NCBI GenBank assembly: GCA_043819555.1
Contig: JBDREQ010000016.1
Location: forward strand, 1-17,275
From: Candidatus Zixiibacteriota bacterium
GTDB taxonomy: Bacteria; Zixibacteria; MSB-5A5; GN15; JAAZOE01
Direction of reading: 5' to 3'
Length of the DNA: 17,275 bases
The notes beneath the pieces were generated by a model. It searched no databases, had not been told where the DNA came from, and saw only the letters and a program-made list of their open reading frames with translations. The first letter of the stretch is position 1. Each line of letters starts with the position of its first letter. Below are positions 751-14,997 of this stretch, piece after piece. Both the position numbers and the translations under genes were made by a program.

Positions 751-1443
751 TTGGGGAGGTTTGTTATCGCACCGCTCAGTCATGACCCGCAGTTTCGTTC
801 GGAAATTAAACTTTTGATTGCCGACGAAAGAAAACTCTTCAGGCAGGGGCTTATTGCCCTTTTTACCAAGGAACCCGGAATTCTTGTCGTTGGCGATAGC
901 GGCGATGGTGTTGAAACCTTCGAACTCGTTATGAACAAAAACCCAGATGTAGTGCTTCTGAACATACGTTTGCCTCTTTTGGATGGACTGGGAGTCGCAC
1001 GGCGCTTAAGAAAAAAGACTGAAACTCCTGAATTCATATTTATGGCGAACTCTCATAACGAACAGATGATGCGAGAGGTCTTTGCTCTCGGTGGACGAGC
1101 TTACCTATTGCAGGATTGCGACTTTCGAGAAATGGTTTTTGCGATCAAGAAAGCTTCGATGGGTGATTTTTACCTGACAGGCCCCGCCGGACGCGAAATG
1201 GTCGACGAATACCTTAGCCCAACATTGGGCGAAGATGTTGAATACGGGAAAATATCACACCGTGAAAAAGAACTGGCAGTTTTACTCGCCGATGGCTATT
1301 CAACAAAAGAAGCCGCCGGATACCTAAATATCAGTATAAAAACCGCCGAAAATCACCGGGCAGCAATTATGAAAAAGATAAAGGCTAAAAACGTCACGGA
1401 TATTGTAAAATTCTGTATTCGAAATAATCTGATTAAAATATAG
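751..1443 (+). CDS. NarL/FixJ-family response regulator (atypical receiver + LuxR-type HTH); start codon uncertain
   Basis: N-terminal IKLLIADE...PDVVLLNIRLPLLDGL receiver fold; C-terminal ISHREKELAVLLADGYSTKEAAGYLNISIKTAENHRAAIMKK is a GerE/LuxR HTH. Confidence 0.93.
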   Translation: MGRFVIAPLSHDPQFRSEIKLLIADERKLFRQGLIALFTKEPGILVVGDSGDGVETFELVMNKNPDVVLLNIRLPLLDGLGVARRLRKKTETPEFIFMANSHNEQMMREVFALGGRAYLLQDCDFREMVFAIKKASMGDFYLTGPAGREMVDEYLSPTLGEDVEYGKISHREKELAVLLADGYSTKEAAGYLNISIKTAENHRAAIMKKIKAKNVTDIVKFCIRNNLIKI

Positions 1444-1519: not shown

Positions 1520-1537
1520 TTGTGAAAATTTTCACTA
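1520..1537. promoter_or_regulatory. Putative Rex operator (alternatively a CRP/FNR-family site) upstream of gdhA
   Basis: TTGTGAA-AATT-TTCACTA matches the Rex consensus TTGTGAA-N4-TTCACAA at 13/14 defined positions; it also fits TGTGA-N6-TCACA with one mismatch. Confidence 0.6.
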
Positions 1538-1680
1538 ATTGTATATTCATGAGTTATTTTGGAAACCGTGCGGCCGCTTTTGCACAGAGTCGAGCAGGGC
1601 AGAGTATTATGCCGCCCGGGCAAGGAGAAATAATACAGCAGTTTTCACGTGAGTCTGTAAATTAACTAAGGAGAAAAACA

Positions 1681-3045
1681 ATGTCTGATTATGTTGCTGA
1701 TTTTATGGCCAGGCTTAAGGCCAAGAATCCGGCTGAACCCGAATTTCATCAAGCCGTTCAGGAAGTCATTGAATCGGTTTCGCTGGTTCTGGATAAACAC
1801 CCCGAATATCGCAATGCCAAAATTATGGAACGTATTGCTGAGCCGGAAAGAGTTATTATGTTCCGCGTGCCGTGGATGGACGACCAGGGCAATTATCAAG
1901 TCAATCGCGGCTTTCGTATTGAAATGAATAGCGCCATTGGGCCATACAAAGGGGGGCTGCGTTTTCATCCTTCAGTCAACCTCGGTATCCTGAAGTTTTT
2001 GGCCTATGAACAAGTTTTCAAAAACAGCCTGACAACTCTGCCGATGGGCGGAGGCAAGGGCGGATCCGATTTTGATCCCAAGGGCAAAAGCGATAATGAA
2101 GTTATGCGTTTCTGCACCAGCTTCATGATGGAACTGTTCCGTCATATCGGGCCGAATACAGACGTTCCGGCTGGTGACATTGGCGTTGGCGGCCGTGAAA
2201 TTGGTTTTCTCTTTGGGACCTACAAGAAAATCCGTGATGAGTTCACCGGCATATTAACCGGTAAGGGTATCAACTGGGGCGGTTCTTTGATTCGCCCGGA
2301 AGCGACCGGTTATGGCGCGGTTTATTTTGCGGCCGAAATGCTGGCTACTCGCGGCGAAACTCTCGAAGGCAAAACCTGTTTGGTTTCAGGTTCCGGAAAT
2401 GTCTTCCAGTATACTGCTGAAAAGATTCTTGATCTCGGCGGCAAAGTTATCACCGCTTCTGATTCAGGCGGTTATATTTATGATCCGGATGGTATTGATC
2501 GCAAAAAACTGGCCTGGATTATGGATCTCAAGAATGTTCGCCGCGGCCGCATCAAAGAATATAGCGACCAATTCAAATCCGCTACTTATACTCCGGTTGA
2601 TCCTAAGCTTGATCATAATCCACTCTGGGATCACAAAGCCAATTGCGCTTTCCCGTCAGCGACGCAGAATGAAATCAATGCCGTCGATGCTCAAAATCTG
2701 ATCAACAACGGCGTTTATGTTGTTTCCGAAGGCGCCAATATGCCGACCGTTCCGGAAGGTGTGGATATTTATCTGAAAAACAAGATTCTCTATGGTCCGG
2801 GCAAAGCCGCCAACGCCGGCGGTGTCGCGGTTTCCGGTCTTGAAATGTCGCAGAACAGCATGCGCTACAGCTGGACTCGCGAAGAAGTTGACAGTAAGTT
2901 GCATGGCATCATGAAGAGCATTCACAAAACCTGTATTGAAGCGGCCGATGCATATGGCCAAAGCGGCAATTATGTCGTTGGCGCCAACATTGGCGGTTTT
3001 GTCAAGGTTGCCAATTCGATGCTTGACCAGGGTATCTTCGGATAA
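1681..3045 (+). CDS. gdhA: Glutamate dehydrogenase, GdhA (NADP-type clade)
   Basis: GPYKGGLRFH, MGGGKGGSDFDPK, DVPAGDIGVG, RPEATGYG, EGANMP and KAANAGGV motifs; SD AAGGAG upstream. Confidence 0.97.
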   Translation: MSDYVADFMARLKAKNPAEPEFHQAVQEVIESVSLVLDKHPEYRNAKIMERIAEPERVIMFRVPWMDDQGNYQVNRGFRIEMNSAIGPYKGGLRFHPSVNLGILKFLAYEQVFKNSLTTLPMGGGKGGSDFDPKGKSDNEVMRFCTSFMMELFRHIGPNTDVPAGDIGVGGREIGFLFGTYKKIRDEFTGILTGKGINWGGSLIRPEATGYGAVYFAAEMLATRGETLEGKTCLVSGSGNVFQYTAEKILDLGGKVITASDSGGYIYDPDGIDRKKLAWIMDLKNVRRGRIKEYSDQFKSATYTPVDPKLDHNPLWDHKANCAFPSATQNEINAVDAQNLINNGVYVVSEGANMPTVPEGVDIYLKNKILYGPGKAANAGGVAVSGLEMSQNSMRYSWTREEVDSKLHGIMKSIHKTCIEAADAYGQSGNYVVGANIGGFVKVANSMLDQGIFG

Positions 3046-3465: not shown

Positions 3466-4062
3466 TCATCCCTCTATCTCATCCGCTGTCTTCAAATCAA
3501 TTGGTGTGCCTCGTTTGCGGAGGTTCTCGATAAGAGAAAGCTTGTAGCCTTCCGGTTTGTCAGTTGGGAGTTTGACTTTGATAGTAACGTCATCCGCGTC
3601 GATGCGAAATACGGCAGTTATCAAAAGTATTTTATCATATTCTTTTTCACCCGAGGTAATCGGGAGAAAGTTGCCTTCGGGTTGATATTTCTCCATCAAT
3701 TTCTGGAGAGCGAAACATCTTGCGTTTTTGTCATTGACAATTCCCGCCCGCCCTTTGATTAATACTGATTTAAACAAATGCGTTGCTCCTCCCGCATTAT
3801 TATCGGACAGCCAGTAAGAAGGTATGATCGAAAGAGGAATATCAACGCTGAACGTTACCCTTGGAGTGAGTACCAATAAATCATATTTTTCGCCTTCGAC
3901 CGCTCCATGAAAGTAAATAACGCGGTCGATTGAGATAAAATTCACCGGAATGACGCGTGGATAGCCATCCTTAGTCATAATTCCCAGATACCCGACGTCG
4001 GCTTCGGATGCGATTTGATCGAACACCGCCATATCTTTTGATTCAAGTTTCTTCCGTCTCAT
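3466..4062 (-). CDS. Pyridoxamine 5'-phosphate oxidase-like (NimA-type) flavin-binding protein
   Basis: MRRK N-terminus, GYLG...DGYPRVIPVNF, IYFHGAVEGEK, PRVTFSV, FKSVLIKG and ALQKLMEKY motifs; SD AAAGGA. Confidence 0.88.
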   Translation of the reverse strand: MRRKKLESKDMAVFDQIASEADVGYLGIMTKDGYPRVIPVNFISIDRVIYFHGAVEGEKYDLLVLTPRVTFSVDIPLSIIPSYWLSDNNAGGATHLFKSVLIKGRAGIVNDKNARCFALQKLMEKYQPEGNFLPITSGEKEYDKILLITAVFRIDADDVTIKVKLPTDKPEGYKLSLIENLRKRGTPIDLKTADEIEG

Positions 4063-4207: not shown

Positions 4208-7180
4208 TTGAGAGATTATGATTTAAATGATCTGGAGCATGGGCGCGGGAGCCGGTTTGTCCGTTTTCAGGATTTGATGAAATTTCGGATAAACAATGTG
4301 CTTTTGGTCTCAAGCCTGTACGACTCATTTATTCTCGGAGAAGACGGGCAATTATACGAAATGCTCGTCAGCGAATATATCGGTTTGAATCTGTCGCAGC
4401 CGCCCGGACTGACTCGAGTTTCCAGCGGCAGGGAAGCTTTGGAACAACTTCATGAAGGCATTAAGTATGATTTAATTATAACGACCCTGCGCCTGGATGA
4501 TATGCATGTTCTGGAGTTTGCCAAACAATTCCGCAATTCCGGAAATGACACGCCTCTGGTTTTATTGACATACGATAATCGCGAACTCAACGAATTGACT
4601 TCCCGTCCCGAGATTAAGCACTTTAATAAAATCTTTATGTGGCAGGGGAATTTTAATATTCTTCTGGGGATTATCAAGTGTATCGAAGATCTCGCTAATG
4701 TCGAACATGACACTAATCTGATCGGCGTCCAATCGATTATTTTAGTCGAGGATAATGTCAAATTTTATTCCTCATATCTGCCAATAATATATGCCGAACT
4801 TCTGCGGCAGTCTCAACATGTAATATCAGAGGGCATCAATCTCGCTCATAAACTGCTTCGCATGCGCGCCCGTCCTAAAATTCTACTATGTACCGATTAT
4901 GAGGAAGCCTGGGATTATTATGTCAAGTATCATGAATCGATTTTGGGGATAATCTCCGACGTTCAATTTCCACGACAAGGGAAGTTCGATCCGAAAGCCG
5001 GCGTGACTTTTGCGAAGGAAATCATAAAATATCATCCTGATATCCCGATTTTATTACAATCATTTGACCCGCAAAGGGAATTAGAGGCGCATGAGATCGG
5101 TGCTTCGTTTCTTCTTAAAAATTCGCCAACACTGCTTCAGGAATTAAGCCGTTTTATGAAAGAATATTTTAGCTTTGGTGATTTCGTTTTCCGGTTTCCG
5201 AACGGCAATGTCGTCGGACGGGCTTCGGACCTCCGGGAAATGCGCGATAAACTGAAGACCATTCCAGAGGAAAGCTTACTATTTCATGCCGAGCGAAACC
5301 ATTTTTCCAACTGGCTCAAAGCGCGGACCGAGTTTTTATTGGCATATAAAATACGTCCCCAAAAGGTATCTGATTTTAAATCGATTGATGAGGTTCGGCA
5401 GTACCTGATTTCACGTTTGCAGGAATACCGGGTTTCTCAGCAGCGCGGCGCCATCATTGATTTTGATCCCGAGACTTTTGATCCCGAGGCGACCTTTGCC
5501 CGTATCGGTGGCGGTTCGCTGGGTGGTAAAGGCCGCGGTTTGGCATTTGCCGGGACATTGATTAATTCTTATGATACAACTTACAAATTTAATGGCGTTA
5601 GGATTTTTGTCCCACCGTCGGTGATTCTTGCAACCGATGTTTTTGACCGTTTCATGGAATTAAATGATCTCAGCGATTTTGCCATCCGTGAGACTGATGA
5701 AGAAACAATCGTTAACCGTTTCCTAAAAGCCGAATTGCCAGGCGATGTTAAAATCTGGCTTCGCGCTTACCTGGAGCAAGTCGATTATCCGATCGCGATT
5801 CGGTCATCAAGCATTCTTGAGGATTCGCAGTATCAGCCGTTTGCGGGGGTTTATCAGACCATTATGCTGCCCAACAATCACAATGATATGGAAATTCGTT
5901 TGCGGCATTTAATCTCATCGATAAAAAGAGTTTATGCCTCGACTTATTCGCGGTATGCCAAAGCCTATATCAAAGCGACGCCGTATCGCCTCGAAGAAGA
6001 AAAAATGGCCGTTATTCTGCAAAAGCTGGTCGGCAGTACCCACGATAAATATTTCTATCCCGATTTTTCAGGAGTGTTACGGTCGCATAACTTTTATCCG
6101 GTATCGCCCATGAAATCAGATGACGGCATCGCTTCCGTTGCGCTTGGACTGGGGCAGATGGTTGTTGAAGGCGGCAATACTATCAGATTCTGTCCGGTTT
6201 ACCCGCGGCATGCCATACAATTTGCAACCATTGAAGATACACTCAATTATTCACAGCGGGAATTTTATGCGGTTGAAATAACCGCCAAAGACGCAGTCTA
6301 TGATCCGGAAGAGAAAACCGATTCGATTAAGCTCAGTATGAGTGTTGCCGAGCATGACGGTGTTTTGGGTCCGGTCGGATCAACGTACAGTCATGAAAAC
6401 AATGTCATTTACGATGGTATCTCCCGCCCCGGGATGCGATTGGTAACTTTCGCAGGTATCCTCAAGAGCGGTATTTTTCCACTGGCCGATATAATGACCG
6501 AGATTATGAATTTGGGCCGGAAAGGTATGAGCGCTCCGGTTGAAATTGAATTCTCAGTAAATCTGAACGTACCGCCCAAAGAACCCAAAGAATTCTGTAT
6601 GCTTCAGATGCGGCCAATAGTTCTCAGGCATGAGCGGGAAGATCTCGATATCGGCGGCACACCAAACGAAGGCCTGATATGCCGAAGTTCGCAGGTTATG
6701 GGGAACGGGTTGATTGATACTATTCATGATATCATCGTCATCAATCAAGATAAGTTTGACCGCTCCAAAAGCGTTTCCGTCGCGCAGCAAATCGGAATAT
6801 TTAACAGGCAATTTCAGGCGGAAAGCCGCCAATACATTTTGATAGGTGTGGGACGATGGGGCTCGGCCGATCCCTGGCTTGGTATTCCTGTTACCTGGGA
6901 CGATATATCCGGGGCCAGCGTGATAGTCGAATCCGATTTTAATGATATGCGGGTCACGCCGTCGCAGGGAACGCATTTCTTTCATAATTTGAATGCCTTC
7001 AAAATAGGATATTTTACAATCGGCGGCGAACGGTCAGATGATTTCGTGGACTGGGGCTGGCTGATGTCCCAAAAGCCGATTTCAAACCGAGGATTGATCA
7101 GACATCTTCATTTTGAATCACCGCTGACGATTAAGATGGACGGCCACAATAACAATGGCGTGATCATCAAGCCGGAATAA
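4208..7180 (+). CDS. Receiver-domain / PPDK-PEP-synthase-type ATP-grasp fusion protein; start uncertain
   Basis: Two REC-like domains (DLIITT degenerate; LVED...IISD...LQS...LLK intact), then PPDK_N motifs LGGKGRGL, AIRSSSILED...FAGVYQT, MAVILQKLV, EIEF and LQMRP. C-terminal SQGTHFFHNL. No PEP/pyruvate TIM barrel. Confidence 0.88.
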   Translation: MRDYDLNDLEHGRGSRFVRFQDLMKFRINNVLLVSSLYDSFILGEDGQLYEMLVSEYIGLNLSQPPGLTRVSSGREALEQLHEGIKYDLIITTLRLDDMHVLEFAKQFRNSGNDTPLVLLTYDNRELNELTSRPEIKHFNKIFMWQGNFNILLGIIKCIEDLANVEHDTNLIGVQSIILVEDNVKFYSSYLPIIYAELLRQSQHVISEGINLAHKLLRMRARPKILLCTDYEEAWDYYVKYHESILGIISDVQFPRQGKFDPKAGVTFAKEIIKYHPDIPILLQSFDPQRELEAHEIGASFLLKNSPTLLQELSRFMKEYFSFGDFVFRFPNGNVVGRASDLREMRDKLKTIPEESLLFHAERNHFSNWLKARTEFLLAYKIRPQKVSDFKSIDEVRQYLISRLQEYRVSQQRGAIIDFDPETFDPEATFARIGGGSLGGKGRGLAFAGTLINSYDTTYKFNGVRIFVPPSVILATDVFDRFMELNDLSDFAIRETDEETIVNRFLKAELPGDVKIWLRAYLEQVDYPIAIRSSSILEDSQYQPFAGVYQTIMLPNNHNDMEIRLRHLISSIKRVYASTYSRYAKAYIKATPYRLEEEKMAVILQKLVGSTHDKYFYPDFSGVLRSHNFYPVSPMKSDDGIASVALGLGQMVVEGGNTIRFCPVYPRHAIQFATIEDTLNYSQREFYAVEITAKDAVYDPEEKTDSIKLSMSVAEHDGVLGPVGSTYSHENNVIYDGISRPGMRLVTFAGILKSGIFPLADIMTEIMNLGRKGMSAPVEIEFSVNLNVPPKEPKEFCMLQMRPIVLRHEREDLDIGGTPNEGLICRSSQVMGNGLIDTIHDIIVINQDKFDRSKSVSVAQQIGIFNRQFQAESRQYILIGVGRWGSADPWLGIPVTWDDISGASVIVESDFNDMRVTPSQGTHFFHNLNAFKIGYFTIGGERSDDFVDWGWLMSQKPISNRGLIRHLHFESPLTIKMDGHNNNGVIIKPE

Positions 7181-9111: not shown

Positions 9112-9951
9112 TTAATCGATTGCCTCACCGGAAACACTGTTGGGATCTATATTTGTTGGAGATGAATTAATTACTGTTCCATATGAAGTGGGATAAAAAG
9201 TCGCTAGTATATGAGTCCTATTTATACTTCCCGTAATACCGTTACCGCAATCAGCATTAAGATACCATTTATGGGTTCCTGCAGTTACGGATTGGGCTTT
9301 GACTATTGACATTGTATTGGTATATGATCCATCGGGGGCTGAATCCATACGCCAATATGCAAAATTATCAAAATCTATACCGGTAGCGGAGGAGCTAATG
9401 GATGCCCGCATATAGTCATCAGAGGTGGCATTTTTACTCATTTGGAAAAAACCCTGCGCGTGTACCACAACATATCCGTTTGATGGGACTGTTATGGAAA
9501 TTGAATCGACCGGTCTGAGTGTATTATTTAAATTGAAACCGGAATATCTAAATGCATGTGCAATTCCCGGAACCATTTGTGTTCTTAAGGCGTAGGGCGC
9601 TGAAGTCATAAGCTGGCGTGGTGACATTTCGGCGTCAGTTCCGGCTTTGATACCAATAAAACGCTGAGCGCCATTAAAAATGCCTGCATCCACGGGGCCG
9701 AGTTCGGCGGTAAAGAGACCGTTGGCATCAGGCGTTATATCTATCGTATCGGCAAAAAGATCGGTGCCGAGAGTTGCGGCATCGTAGATGGTGAAAATGA
9801 CCTGGGTGGTTGCCGTGATTGGAGCGCCGTCGGTATCGGTCAGCCGCCCTTGATACATAATAGTATTGGGTGCCTGAGCAATAGCAACCGGCGCAATAAC
9901 AAATAATATGGCAAAAAGAATCAAAATCCGAGAAAGTTTGATATGTCTCAT
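9112..9951 (-). CDS. Secreted protein with YQGRL...SAPYA N-terminal domain (fibre/adhesin-type)
   Basis: Start moved from 9990 to ATG 9951, which has SD AAGGAG. Signal peptide ends VAIA-QAP; then IMYQGRLTD...FTIYDA...GLFTAELG...EMSPRQLMTSAPYAL and a beta-rich C-terminal domain. Confidence 0.8.
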   Translation of the reverse strand: MRHIKLSRILILFAILFVIAPVAIAQAPNTIMYQGRLTDTDGAPITATTQVIFTIYDAATLGTDLFADTIDITPDANGLFTAELGPVDAGIFNGAQRFIGIKAGTDAEMSPRQLMTSAPYALRTQMVPGIAHAFRYSGFNLNNTLRPVDSISITVPSNGYVVVHAQGFFQMSKNATSDDYMRASISSSATGIDFDNFAYWRMDSAPDGSYTNTMSIVKAQSVTAGTHKWYLNADCGNGITGSINRTHILATFYPTSYGTVINSSPTNIDPNSVSGEAID

Positions 9952-10281
9952 TTTGTCTCCTTTATAAATTGCTAGTTTTTTGCCTCCCAAAAATCAAGCA
10001 GAAAAACGCGGTTTTTACTTGTACCCGGATTAATATTCAAAAATACTCAACAAGAATTCAACAAAAAAGTACGAAGAATTTTGAGGGCGGGTTTGAATTC
10101 GGAAGGAATTTGAAAACTTGAAATGCTCATTAAGAGACATCCGGAACTGGCATATTTGTGGGTCCATTATTTGAACATTACTGGTGGAAATGGAGGGAAA
10201 ATGTCTAAAAAAGTGACAATTGGCGAATATTGGCCGAAAATAGAAGTATATAGTCTGAATTTGAAAATGTGGGAGAATAAT

Positions 10282-11412
10282 ATGTCAGTTTTTATGGAAA
10301 TTATCGAGTGGATGGATCCTTCGGGCGAGGAAATGATTCATCGGATTCCTCAGGAAGGTTCGGCCGATTTTAAGCTGGGGGCGCAGCTTATTGTACGCGA
10401 CAGCCAGATGGCCATATTTTTCAAAAACGGCCATGCCGCCGATTCATTTACGACTGGACGGCATACGTTATCAACTCTCAATGTGCCGATCCTGACTCGA
10501 TTACTGGCTTTTCCTTATGGATTTGACTCGCCTTTCAGGGCGGAAGTGTATTTTGTAAATCTTAAAACGTTCACTAATTTGAAATGGGGCACCAGGCATC
10601 CGGTGACTTTCAGAGATTCCGGATTGGGTTTGATTCGTCTGCGCTGTCATGGCGCCTTTACGATGAAGATTACTGAGCCGGCTCTGTTTTTGAATTCAAT
10701 TGTCGGCCGTCAATCGCGGTATTCTACTGAAGAAATTCAGGATTATCTGCGCGATGTGATTATCGCGCGGATGAATGATATGCTTGGTGAAAAGCTTGAT
10801 TCAATTCTTGATCTGCCCGCGATTTATACCGAATTGGCCGAGGATTTCAAGGGAATCGTGTCTGATGAATTTGGTAAGTATGGCTTGGAATTGGTTGATT
10901 TCTATATATCATCGATCACCCCCCCGGAAGACGTTTCGAAAATGATCGACCAGCGATCCGGAATGGAAGCAGTGGGCGATCTTGATAAATTCCTGAAATT
11001 CGAAATAGCCAAGGGCCTGGGGACATCCGGCGGTCCGGCCGGGGCCGGGGCCGGCATTGGGATGGGAGCCGGGGTCGGTTTGATGGTACCCGGGATGATG
11101 CAAAAAGTGTTTTCTCCGGAACAGACCGAACTTCGCCGCGAACCGGTTCTGACGGTGACCTGCCCTGCCTGCCATACCGATACGCCGGAACAGTCGCGTT
11201 TTTGCTATCGGTGCGGTCATGCCATGATAAGGCTAAATATGTGTCCCAGTTGCGGTAACGAACTCCCTACTGAGGCGAGTTTTTGCATGAGCTGCGGACA
11301 TAAATTAAATGTCAATCCGAGCTGTCCTCATTGTTTGAAGGAGATAATTCCGGGTTCAAAGTACTGCGGCGAATGCGGTAAAAAGGTCATCGGAGATGAA
11401 GCAGCCAATTAG
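10282..11412 (+). CDS. SPFH/band-7 (YdjI-like) protein with C-terminal zinc ribbons
   Basis: Start moved from 10123 to ATG 10282, which has [42 protein letters not shown] and LKWGT motifs; Gly-rich [11 protein letters not shown]; six CxxC motifs. Confidence 0.9.
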
Positions 11413-12883
11413 AAAAACCGGATTTTATATAGGCGTCTCCTGTCCCGGATGCGGGGCGGATCTGGAATTGCAGAATGATTTTTTCTCAATTGAATGCTCC
11501 TTTTGCGGTTCAGTATTAAGATTGGAGATGCCAGAAACGTTTCCGATCTATTATGTCCCGATGAAAATGAAAAAGCGCGAGCTTCGATTTCAGGCTGATC
11601 GCTATCTCAGAAATGCCGGTTTGCCTTTGACCGGTGCGGATTTATCTTTTAGAGTCATTTATTATCCATACTGGAAAATCGACGCGGTTAAATTGCAGAT
11701 TAAAGCCAGGGAGACTGAATATTATTCCGGGAATTCAAACTCCAATATAATGACCACTCAACTTGATTATCATGGTGTCTTCGTTACCGGACGTGTTATT
11801 GGAAATTCATTAACAGCAAAACTATCGATTCCGGATGAAAAAAAATTAGTAGCGCATTTTTCGCCATATTCGACAACACGCATGGCGGCGAAGGAGATAT
11901 CCGGAATACCGTCATCTCTGGGTCAGCGCACCGATTATATAAAAATGTATCCGAAATCAGCCGAAGGTCATGATGATTCGGCTCAGTATTATCCGATTGA
12001 GAATTCCTGGGAGATGATAGAAAAACAATTCAGTGGTTCAGCAGGTATGAAAAAACATACCTGCGAGTTGGGAATGTTCCCTGAAACAAAACTTCTGTTT
12101 CCCGAAGGATCGATTGTATATTTTCCTTTCGCGATTTTTGAGCATACATCTCATGGGGATCGCCAAAGAATAGTCTGCGATGGAGTCGTTGGCAGGGTCC
12201 TGGCGATCATTAATCCCTCAGACGAGTTAACCAGCGAACATCAGGGTCAGACATCATTAATTGATTATGGTCAGGTTTTGATTAAAATGCATCGATGTAA
12301 GAATTGCGGAGCTGATCTTCCAGCGAACAGTTCCTCGGTTTATATATGCCGCAATTGTCGGATCGCGGTTTCTTTCGATAGTAATTTGACATTGAATGAA
12401 GGGATATTTCAGGTCAAAGAGCCAAACCCCGGCAAAAACAGGAATTTTCAATTGTTTCCCTTCTGGTCATTCCGGGGGCCCGGGGGATTAATAAATAATT
12501 TTGTGAAATCATATAATCAAAATGAAAATTGTGAAAACATTATTGTCCCGGCTTTTACTTTTTCCAACTTTGACGCTATGCGGCGTCTGACTAAAAGAGT
12601 CACAGCTTCAGGACAAACGTTGAACGTCGAAACGGTCAATGAATTGGATCGGCGTTTTTTGCCGGCAACAGTAGGCTTGCAGAAGGCGCATCGGATGGCC
12701 GAGATAACTCTATATTGTTCCCATGCAGCCGACAAACCAAATCTATCAATCGAAGATTTTACATTTGCGATAGAGGATTCACGGTTGATATATATTCCCT
12801 TCAGCTGTGAAAATTATTTCTACGTTTCGACAGTAAACAACGCGATTACTTTTGAAAAGGGCGCTTATCGCTCCCTATCATAG
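11396..12883 (+). CDS. Hypothetical zinc-ribbon protein (YdjG-like partner of the SPFH gene)
   Basis: Overlaps the upstream gene by 17 nt; CPGCGAD...CSFCGS and CKNCGAD...CRNC ribbons; YYPYW and LFPFW motifs. Confidence 0.8.
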
Positions 12884-12990
12884 ATACTTTCCATTTGTTG
12901 ACTTTTTAATGGCTATGGATTAATTTCTCACAGGCCGTAATTACAAATAATTATTTTGAAAAGATATCTTTCCAACAGAGGATTAAATAT

Positions 12991-14997
12991 ATGTCAAAGA
13001 GAAAAATACGCCGTAAAATCGAGGCGGCTGAATTATTTAATATTGAACTTTTAACTTCAGCCAAAATATCACCTGATGAAAAGAGAATCGCGTATACAAC
13101 TGAAACCATGTCTGAAGATCGGCGCGAATACTATTCGAGGATTCATGTCGTTGATGTTGCATCCGGCAAATCCCGACAATATACTTTTGGAGAAATATAT
13201 GATCAAGGGGTAGCGTGGTCGCATGATGGAAAGACGTTGTCCTTTGTTTCTACCCGGAATAAAAAAACAGGTATATATTTGATGCCTGTTGAAGGAGGAG
13301 GCGAACAAAAACTTATTGAGCTGGATGGCGCTTTTTCGAATCTGAATTGGACGCCCGATGATAAAGAAATAGTTTTCCAGTTTCGTCTCAATGACTCACA
13401 TGACATTGAGGATGAAAAGAAAAAGAAAGAAGCGCCGGTTTTTCGACGCATTACACGATTATACTATCGATTAAACGGAACCGGATTTATTCCCCGTGAT
13501 AGATATCATATCTGGAAAATTAATATTGAAACCGGAAAAATGATTCAATTGACGAAAGGCAAGTATGATGACACAGGACCAGCGCTATCGCCCGACGGCA
13601 AAATGATTGCATTTGTATCAAATCGGTCAGGAAATCCTGATGTTGATATGCTGCGCGATGATATTTTTGTTATCCCGGTAAATGGAGGCAGTTTGAAGAA
13701 AATTCAAACCCCGGCTGGTCCCAAAACGGAATTGTCATTTTCGCCTGACGGTAAGAAATTGGCGTATGCGGGCCATACCAATCCGGATGATCCGTGGGGG
13801 GTAACTAATTTTCATTTGTGGACGGTGGGAGTTAACGAGAGGTCAAGGGCCAGGGATTTAATCCCCAAATTTGATCGTCAGGTAATGGATTCCACTATTG
13901 GGGATATGGGTGAGGCTTTTATGGTACCAATCCCGGTCTGGTCGCCAGATGGGAAGCGGATTTATTTTGCATCATCGGATACCGGCCAAACCAGTGTTTT
14001 TTATGTATCGGCCAAAGGCGGGCTGCCAACCCGGGTTACAAAAAAGAAATGCCATATAAAGGAATATTCATTCGGAAAAAGCTGCAAACAATTTGCGGCT
14101 GTATATTCAGATCAGAAGATCCCCGGTGAATTGCACATTATTCCCGCTGTTTATAATGGCGACAGCAGGTCAAGAACGTTAGCGGCTCCATCTCGGAGAC
14201 TCATGGCTGAATTAAAGGCGCCGGCCATCAAGGAAATTTGGTTTAAGGCTCAGGATGGAACCAGACTGCAGGGGTGGCTGGTGACACCACCCGAGTTAAA
14301 AAAACATCGGAAATATCCTGCCATTTTGGAGATACACGGCGGCCCCAGAACTCAGTATGGCTATACGTATTATTTTGAAATGCTTTATTTGGCGTCGCAG
14401 GGTTATGTTGTTTTTTATACCAATCCCCGAGGAGGAGCCGGCCGGGGAGAGACATTCGCCGGTACAATTGTCGGCGATTGGGGCTCGATTGATTACACGG
14501 ATTGTATGGCCGCGGCCGATTACCTTGCGAGTTTGCCATATGTGAACGCAAAAAAGATGGGGGTAACGGGCGGGTCATACGGCGGTTATATGACGAATTG
14601 GATAATCGGACAAACAAGCAGATTTCGGGCGGCCGTAACGCAAAGATCGGTAGTTGATTTAGGGAGTTTTTTTGGTACCTCGGATATGGGATACAGCCTT
14701 GACCGAGAGTTTCTTGGCACGCCGTGGACAGCCGAAGAAAACTATAAAAAATGTTCGCCTTTAACTTATGTCAGCAACATAAGGACACCTCTATTGATAA
14801 TTCATTCCGAGCAGGATCTGCGGTGTTCTATTGAACAAGCGGAACAATTGTTCGTAACCATGAAAATGATGAAGAAAACGGTTGAGTTTATTCGTTTTCC
14901 GGAAGAGTCTCATGGTTTATCGCGGCATGGCCGCCCCGACAGGCGAATCGCTCGCATGGAGTTGATTAGGAATTGGTTTGATAAATACTTAAAATGA
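12991..14997 (+). CDS. S9-family (S9C, acylaminoacyl/dipeptidyl aminopeptidase-like) peptidase
   Basis: Repeated (W/L/F)SPDGK beta-propeller motifs; IHGGP, nucleophile GGSYGG, EQDLRC and EESHGL; SD GAGG; no signal peptide. Confidence 0.95.
   Translation: MSKRKIRRKIEAAELFNIELLTSAKISPDEKRIAYTTETMSEDRREYYSRIHVVDVASGKSRQYTFGEIYDQGVAWSHDGKTLSFVSTRNKKTGIYLMPVEGGGEQKLIELDGAFSNLNWTPDDKEIVFQFRLNDSHDIEDEKKKKEAPVFRRITRLYYRLNGTGFIPRDRYHIWKINIETGKMIQLTKGKYDDTGPALSPDGKMIAFVSNRSGNPDVDMLRDDIFVIPVNGGSLKKIQTPAGPKTELSFSPDGKKLAYAGHTNPDDPWGVTNFHLWTVGVNERSRARDLIPKFDRQVMDSTIGDMGEAFMVPIPVWSPDGKRIYFASSDTGQTSVFYVSAKGGLPTRVTKKKCHIKEYSFGKSCKQFAAVYSDQKIPGELHIIPAVYNGDSRSRTLAAPSRRLMAELKAPAIKEIWFKAQDGTRLQGWLVTPPELKKHRKYPAILEIHGGPRTQYGYTYYFEMLYLASQGYVVFYTNPRGGAGRGETFAGTIVGDWGSIDYTDCMAAADYLASLPYVNAKKMGVTGGSYGGYMTNWIIGQTSRFRAAVTQRSVVDLGSFFGTSDMGYSLDREFLGTPWTAEENYKKCSPLTYVSNIRTPLLIIHSEQDLRCSIEQAEQLFVTMKMMKKTVEFIRFPEESHGLSRHGRPDRRIARMELIRNWFDKYLK

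Follow-up and report, generated by a model that had tools for sequence, protein, structure and literature searches.

A receiver-bearing, dikinase-like protein family that accompanies glutamate dehydrogenase, probably as its dedicated regulator

The protein K990, which is encoded near gdhA in the window (the whole 17,275-nucleotide stretch of DNA analyzed), belongs to a family that is a real, widespread and uncharacterized system. On balance, K990 is probably a phosphohistidine-dependent regulator that acts at the protein level and is dedicated to a cognate GdhA-type glutamate dehydrogenase (GDH). Literature searches, with most subscription journals outside their coverage, found no paper on the family and no characterized member, in agreement with an earlier reading of the DNA from its letters only (the sequence-only reading), which knew of none. 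The genes around K990 are arranged as follows.

751 to 1443, forward strand: NarL/LuxR-type regulator, a lineage-limited neighbor of gdhA, whose phospho-Asp and Lys sites hold Asn71 and Gln, respectively.
1520 to 1547, forward strand: putative Sigma70-like promoter of gdhA, TATTG-N-TATATT, aligned across related gdhA loci.
1681 to 3045, forward strand: gdhA, NADP-specific-type GDH, the presumed partner of K990 (PRK09414, 738.9 bits against a cut-off of 536).
3466 to 4062, reverse strand: Nim/pyridoxamine-5'-phosphate-oxidase-like gene, between gdhA and K990.
4208 to 7180, forward strand: K990, GDH-associated dikinase-like protein, an open reading frame of 990 aa.

Two start codons are candidates for K990, TTG at 4208 and Met24, the latter being invariant in all 82 GDH-adjacent members of the family. 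The named close relatives come from Zixibacteria and other FCB-group bacteria. In the window, gdhA and K990 are not adjacent, as the Nim-like gene intervenes on the opposite strand. Because this gene and a 13-pair hairpin 3' of gdhA lie between them, co-transcription of the two is unlikely here. The Nim-like gene was found near K990 in one other of 20 loci examined, and a role for it was ruled out because it is not conserved. Further along the window, an SPFH/double-zinc-ribbon gene, a zinc-ribbon gene and an S9 peptidase gene are consecutive (10123-14997), a trio also present near K990 in locus L012. Two other genes encode secreted-looking proteins, one at the contig end (15783-17219) with weak dockerin and BACON matches and one (9112-9990) with no Pfam match.

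The AlphaFold model of K990, with a mean pLDDT of 82.2, consists of five domains.

4289 to 4723, forward strand: pseudo-receiver, about residues 28-172, with Thr93 at the phospho-Asp site and a Response_reg match.
4727 to 5185, forward strand: intact receiver with a helical insert, residues 174-326, with E181-D182, D251 (codon 4958-4960), S285 and K304.
5186 to 5443, forward strand: small hairpin-plus-helical domain, residues 327-412, with a weak DUF5752 match and an invariant Trp369.
5447 to 6637, forward strand: PPDK/PEPS-type ATP-grasp domain, residues 414-810, with a PPDK_N match and the nucleotide-site residues kept.
6659 to 7177, forward strand: predicted divergent swivelling beta/beta/alpha domain, residues 818-990, with His923 (codon 6974-6976) and the family motif GRWGSxDPWLGIPV.

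The Pfam matches are PPDK_N at residues 437-811 (E 2.6e-36) and Response_reg at 68-124 (E 1.2e-7), while the DUF5752 match at 338-408 falls below the Pfam cut-off. The pseudo-receiver, the receiver and the PPDK-type ATP-grasp domain named in the sequence-only reading are confirmed, as are its C-terminal domain and the positions it gave for Thr93, Asp251, His923 and the motif SQGTHFFHNL (residues 919-928); the helical domain at about 327-412 had been missed. One family member of 1557 aa (P0184) carries a long N-terminal extension ahead of the receiver, DUF5752 and PPDK_N.

The second receiver possesses the features of a phosphorylatable receiver, namely the acidic pair, the Asp, the Ser, the Lys and the receiver fold, whereas the first lacks the Asp. 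Residues 174-326 superpose on canonical receivers with Z scores of 12-15 (4mld, Z 14.7, rmsd 2.4 A over 127 aligned residues) and include a long helical insert (helices 184-207 and 212-220). In the first receiver, Asp is absent from position 93 in 115 of 115 close relatives, and Trp145, which by inspection lies near the usual position of the receiver Lys, is invariant. Conservation was followed further in a set of 44 full-length members with 34-52% identity, comprising the query and those 43 of 150 matches that were 930-1030 aa long. D251 is kept in all 115 close relatives, in all 82 GDH-adjacent members and in 39 of the 44 diverse members, the other five being distant members in which it is replaced or missing. 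K304 is kept in 42 and S285 in 40 of the 44. Among the 82 GDH-adjacent members, E181, K304 and H923 are likewise invariant.

The catalytic half is more uniformly conserved. All 44 members share His923, K441, R532, E779, E781 and Q800, and 43 share R802; the roles of the nucleotide-site residues are presumably those they have in PEP synthase and PPDK. In a single superposition, residues 415-990 of the model match both the ATP-grasp and the His domains of PEP synthase (2ols, Z 25.9, 354 aligned, rmsd 5.2), RPH (5hv3, Z 25.6, 376 aligned, rmsd 6.7) and PPDK (1dik, Z 19.0, 338 aligned, rmsd 6.1). Together, sequence and model show that K990 contains an intact dikinase ATP-grasp domain and a swivel domain whose His is invariant, the two docked as in PEPS, PPDK and RPH.

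The C-terminal domain folded alone has a pLDDT of 95. Against 48,161 chains, its top fold match is a DRTGG domain (Z 6.5), and ranks 2-5 are His-carrier swivel domains (PPDK, RPH and pyruvate-kinase, Z 6.0-6.3). The domain is swivel-like by this structure comparison, as had been anticipated from sequence, but a Z of about 6 is middling and counts against the reading of K990 as a GDH regulator. Foldseek with this domain returned nothing at E<=0.001, its profile gave chance matches only among PDB sequences, and a search of the ESM Atlas gave unnamed clusters and one PPDK_N cluster. With hhalign, the probability against swivel domains was 0.6-0.65%, which is not significant, and two or three rows of the template were in the wrong frame. 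The same non-significant alignment pairs the K990 His with the swivel His and keeps the order of the strands on either side, and the register of His923 rests on this alignment together with secondary structure. Overall, the models lead us to conclude that the C-terminal domain is most likely a strongly remodelled swivel domain.

Databases label K990 as a PEP synthase, and were it a true PEP synthase or PPDK its proximity to GDH would be incidental. This is extremely improbable, because K990 has no barrel: no PEP-utilizers or pyruvate-barrel match was found by Pfam, the swivel domain is the last in the protein, and domains other than a barrel account for all 990 residues. Its NCBIfam scores for PEP synthase, RPH, PigC and RedH are all far under the cut-offs (35.9 against 739.75 bits for PEP synthase). 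Moreover, separate PPDK-like and PEPS-like genes, labelled by inspection, are present elsewhere in the source genome. The sequence-only view that the protein is no PEP synthase is therefore upheld.

Comparison with known systems shows both shared chemistry and distinct architecture. PEP synthase (2ols) and PPDK (1dik) possess the same nucleotide-site residues and an equal arrangement, with the swivel directly after the ATP-grasp domain. However, they have the PEP/pyruvate barrel that K990 lacks, and their GGxTSH motif is SQG[ST]HFF in K990. The nearest ATP-grasp structures are those of RPH (5hv1/5hv3; Z 26.2 for 5hv1) and HpeI (9goj), which have a C-terminal swivel His domain in common with K990; these enzymes possess a small-molecule binding domain or subunit, while K990 has receivers instead. 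Hybrid GHKL histidine kinases also hold a His and a receiver Asp in one chain, and PleD-type enzymes, among which PleD is a Foldseek match, have a tandem pseudo-receiver/receiver pair. In contrast to both, the output of K990 is a dikinase core; Pfam found no HisKA/DHp or HATPase_c domain, and the regions concerned are assigned to other domains. The closest precedent in the accessible literature is VadK (Rv1127c), a PPDK-derived histidine kinase described as autophosphorylating His422, co-precipitating PrpC and PrpD (rv1130-1131) and tuning their flux without transcriptional control (PMC13400623). As described there, VadK also consists of an ATP-grasp and a His domain without a pyruvate barrel, but it is an actinobacterial protein of about 50 kDa with two domains only, set apart from K990 in a comparison of size and domain content. 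K990 differs from this description by its two receivers, its GDH partner, its helical domain and a swivel that has diverged much further (SxG[ST]HFF). By analogy, K990 may work like VadK or RPH in its chemistry, as a member of neither family.

The same likeness would allow K990 to be an RPH/HpeHI-like small-molecule dikinase, which would act on a metabolite at the 2-oxoglutarate/glutamate node with a substrate site provided by the N-terminal domains or by GDH. Its top structural and HMM matches (RPH, HpeI, PEPS, PigC and RedH) agree with such an activity, and in the published part of the cofitness data described below, the pattern of the BT1972 mutant is closer to korAB than to gdh. Nevertheless, this is a rather unlikely explanation, since the ATP-grasp domain ends near residue 810 of the model and the swivel begins near 818, with no substrate-binding domain between them. 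One K copy per GdhA paralogue, moreover, is hard to square with a diffusible product.

The link to GDH itself comes from gene neighborhoods. In a sample of GTDB loci that spans many phyla (the best 80 of the 607 that were confirmed), a GDH gene lies within 6 kb of K990 in 54 loci, and in 30 of the 38 with full flanks. We estimate the chance expectation at about 1%, assuming that a genome of 3-4 Mb holds two or three GDH genes, so the neighborhood proposed from sequence is strongly enriched. Other neighbor families each occur in at most eight of these best 80 of 607, and there is no third conserved gene. The other 26 of the 80 show no GDH in the available flank, including members from Desulfobacterales and Thermoplasmatota (L079, L080, L082, L085, L087 and L097), and these loci count against K990 as a GDH regulator.

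Genome surveys, all of whose counts are inflated by kinship because kin are not independent, give a similar association. Across 151 genomes of the same phylum, a GdhA-type gene is present in all 47 K990 carriers, classed by open-frame length and identity, and lies within 10 kb in 41 of them, compared with 54 of the 104 other genomes, which include two ambiguous fragments. Because these 54 have a GdhA-type gene, GdhA does not need K990 everywhere. In Bacteroidia, 104 of 201 genomes match the C-terminal domain. A GdhA-type gene is present in 79 of 80 tested carriers (from 87) and, at E<=1e-120, in none of 80 tested genomes without a C-domain match (from 97). Hand counting, in which some partial frames were included, gives K and GdhA the same copy number in 76 of 80 genomes (51 at 1:1 and 25 at 2:2). 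The 17 genomes with two copies show a consistent pairing, each K clade being the neighbor of a GdhA clade of its own. In midpoint-rooted FastTree trees, K groups by host lineage and GdhA by type, which suggests that K was duplicated twice and serves two older GdhA types.

Convergent specificity residues in the twice-duplicated paralogues numbered four sites, versus five in a control pairing, and inter-protein mutual information between K and GdhA over 82 pairs gave no interpretable signal. GdhA Glu42 (window 1804-1806) occurs in 79 of 82 K990-adjacent proteins versus 12 of 40 from genomes lacking K990; this contrast is not significant after phylogenetic control, with six independent pairs only, so the possible association is a lead only. 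Prediction of a complex between GdhA and K990 residues 15-415, a fragment without the catalytic half, scored 0.00 both times and bears on neither side.

In this lineage, a LuxR gene without a companion kinase lies ahead of gdhA, together with a conserved promoter that contains palindromes, and K990 could stand in for the histidine kinase and control transcription through that regulator. In the window, no kinase gene lies beside the regulator (751-1443), and a perfect palindrome, GTGAAAATTTTCAC, is found at 1522-1535, with near-copies in the related loci L175 and L012. AGG-Nx-CC(C/T) repeats also occur upstream of gdhA in several related loci (window region 1460-1547), making the region 1460-1547 a candidate operator. 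Transcriptional control by K990 is nonetheless very unlikely. The regulator in the window has Asn at its phospho site, and LuxR genes, mostly Asp-bearing, are present in five of the best 80 of 607 cross-phylum loci; in four of these five a PAS protein adjoins, and a protein of this kind was recognized as a PAS histidine kinase in locus L225. Close relatives of the window's regulator encoded upstream of gdhA mostly have Asn or Glu at this site, and a few have Asp.

Receiver-less paralogues provide further evidence on which parts of K990 are essential to the system. The K990-type C-terminal domain is also found in a protein of about 585 aa, which is the core only, and in one of about 1060 aa; neither has a receiver, and the two are often in tandem and sometimes fused. 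The pair directly follows a GDH of about 428 aa (archaeal/GudB-like type) in 11 of 13 pair loci examined, and the longer paralogue directly follows a GDH gene in 15 of 20 further loci. All 15 of the shorter and all 40 of the longer proteins examined retain the His motif. Because they keep both the His motif and the GDH neighbor, the conserved unit appears to consist of GDH and the dikinase core, to which different N-terminal modules can be attached, and the receivers would be an input or feedback part rather than a necessary acceptor. A relay from His923 to the protein's own Asp251, which the sequence-only reading had proposed, is weakened as the core function of the family by these paralogues and by the loss of Asp251 in 5 of 44 members.

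The N-terminal domain of the 1060-aa paralogue is shared with a 576-aa kinase-like gene of the source genome (G000:C19:20793-26000), which precedes a regulator of the receiver/sigma-54 type and NuoE-like genes, all labelled by inspection. Nucleotidylation was rejected as the core mechanism, since a nucleotidyltransferase domain ends only part of the 1060-aa subfamily. In locus L002 (11151-16942), the 428-aa GDH is accompanied by the 585-aa core and by a 1060-aa protein that bears a nucleotidyltransferase of the Pol-beta type, with a metallophosphoesterase gene in convergent orientation. The metallophosphoesterase was found in 13 of 20 loci examined, and the module is a possible writer/eraser set.

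The family extends to Bacteroides, in which GDH is described as a main ammonia-assimilation route (PMC4539542). K990 also occurs in named gut Bacteroidales (40-41% identity), with none of the key residues lost. The order in Phocaeicola massiliensis is malic enzyme, GDH, four genes, K990 (convergent) and a second GDH. In named gut Bacteroidales loci a single K lies between two GDHs, and one Prevotella K locus has no GDH within 9 kb; both arrangements count against a regulator with one K per GdhA. In Bacteroides thetaiotaomicron, the published order is BT1969 malic enzyme, BT1970 GDH, BT1971 catalase, BT1972 'PEP synthase' and BT1973 GDH (PMC4595636; PMC12596196). Given this shared synteny, BT1972 is very probably the K990 of this species, an assignment made by gene order and not by sequence. 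In RB-TnSeq data from 523 experiments, the table covering cofitness of at least 0.8 and rank up to 10 gives korB (0.824) and korA (0.817) as the only listed partners of BT1972, and BT1970 is not among them; korAB and BT1970 are in turn cofit with genes of amino-acid biosynthesis (PMC8121099, Table S3). At this threshold, the absence of BT1970 argues against BT1972 as an obligatory activator of the BT1970 GDH. Together with the korAB cofitness in the table, it indicates that loss of BT1972 resembles a shortage at the 2-oxoglutarate/glutamate node and not loss of BT1970.

GDH could also be the input rather than the target. K990 would then read the ligand state of GDH and signal through Asp251 to another target, such as KorAB or a transcription factor. 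Such trigger-enzyme logic is known from RocG-GltC of B. subtilis. The K/GdhA pairing data carry no direction, the listed BT1972 cofitness points to korAB, and Asp251 is invariant among GDH-adjacent members (82 of 82). Even so, this explanation is unlikely, as the best 80 of 607 loci offer no third conserved gene and paralogues without a receiver exist.

In the preferred reading, that of a protein-level regulator dedicated to GdhA, ATP would phosphorylate His923 in the manner of dikinases with release of AMP, as expected from the chemistry of the family and from VadK. The genomics suggest that the output would be GdhA itself, with one K990 per GdhA paralogue. The receivers would serve as an input or feedback module, for which the paralogues swap in another N-terminal domain. 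Our guesses for the next step are, in falling order, that phosphate might pass to a residue of GdhA, to Asp251 so as to gate GdhA binding, or to a ligand in the K990-GdhA complex. The net effect would most likely be to favor glutamate synthesis, although the direction is a guess.

This reading can be compared with an older observation. For Bacteroides gdhA, Baggio and Morrison reportedly found in 1996 that activity in E. coli depended on some 3 kb of DNA located downstream, with no change in transcription; the title of their paper speaks of trans-acting gene(s), then unidentified, that lie downstream of gdhA and influence its activity. BT1972 is a candidate for this gene; the DNA concerned may instead hold the catalase gene. 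In a bolder form, which we hold only tentatively, K990 would be a complete His-Asp phosphorelay in its own right, with a dikinase in place of the GHKL kinase and phosphate moving from ATP to His923 and on to Asp251 or GdhA; it would switch GdhA on and be the 1996 trans-acting factor. It would then represent a new post-translational control of nitrogen metabolism across FCB-group bacteria and other anaerobes, including gut Bacteroidales.

In conclusion, thousands of proteins labelled PEP synthase, histidine kinase or CheY-like receive a corrected annotation, as 8000 of 8000 scored candidates passed. If the proposed function is true, K990 would be the second dikinase turned regulatory kinase after VadK, and we know of no earlier dikinase-derived regulatory kinase wired to receiver domains. 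BT1972 provides a concrete candidate in a tractable gut commensal with an existing mutant phenotype, which makes the old question of 1996 directly testable. The K990 family accompanies GDH across many bacteria, where it probably controls this central ammonia-assimilating enzyme directly.
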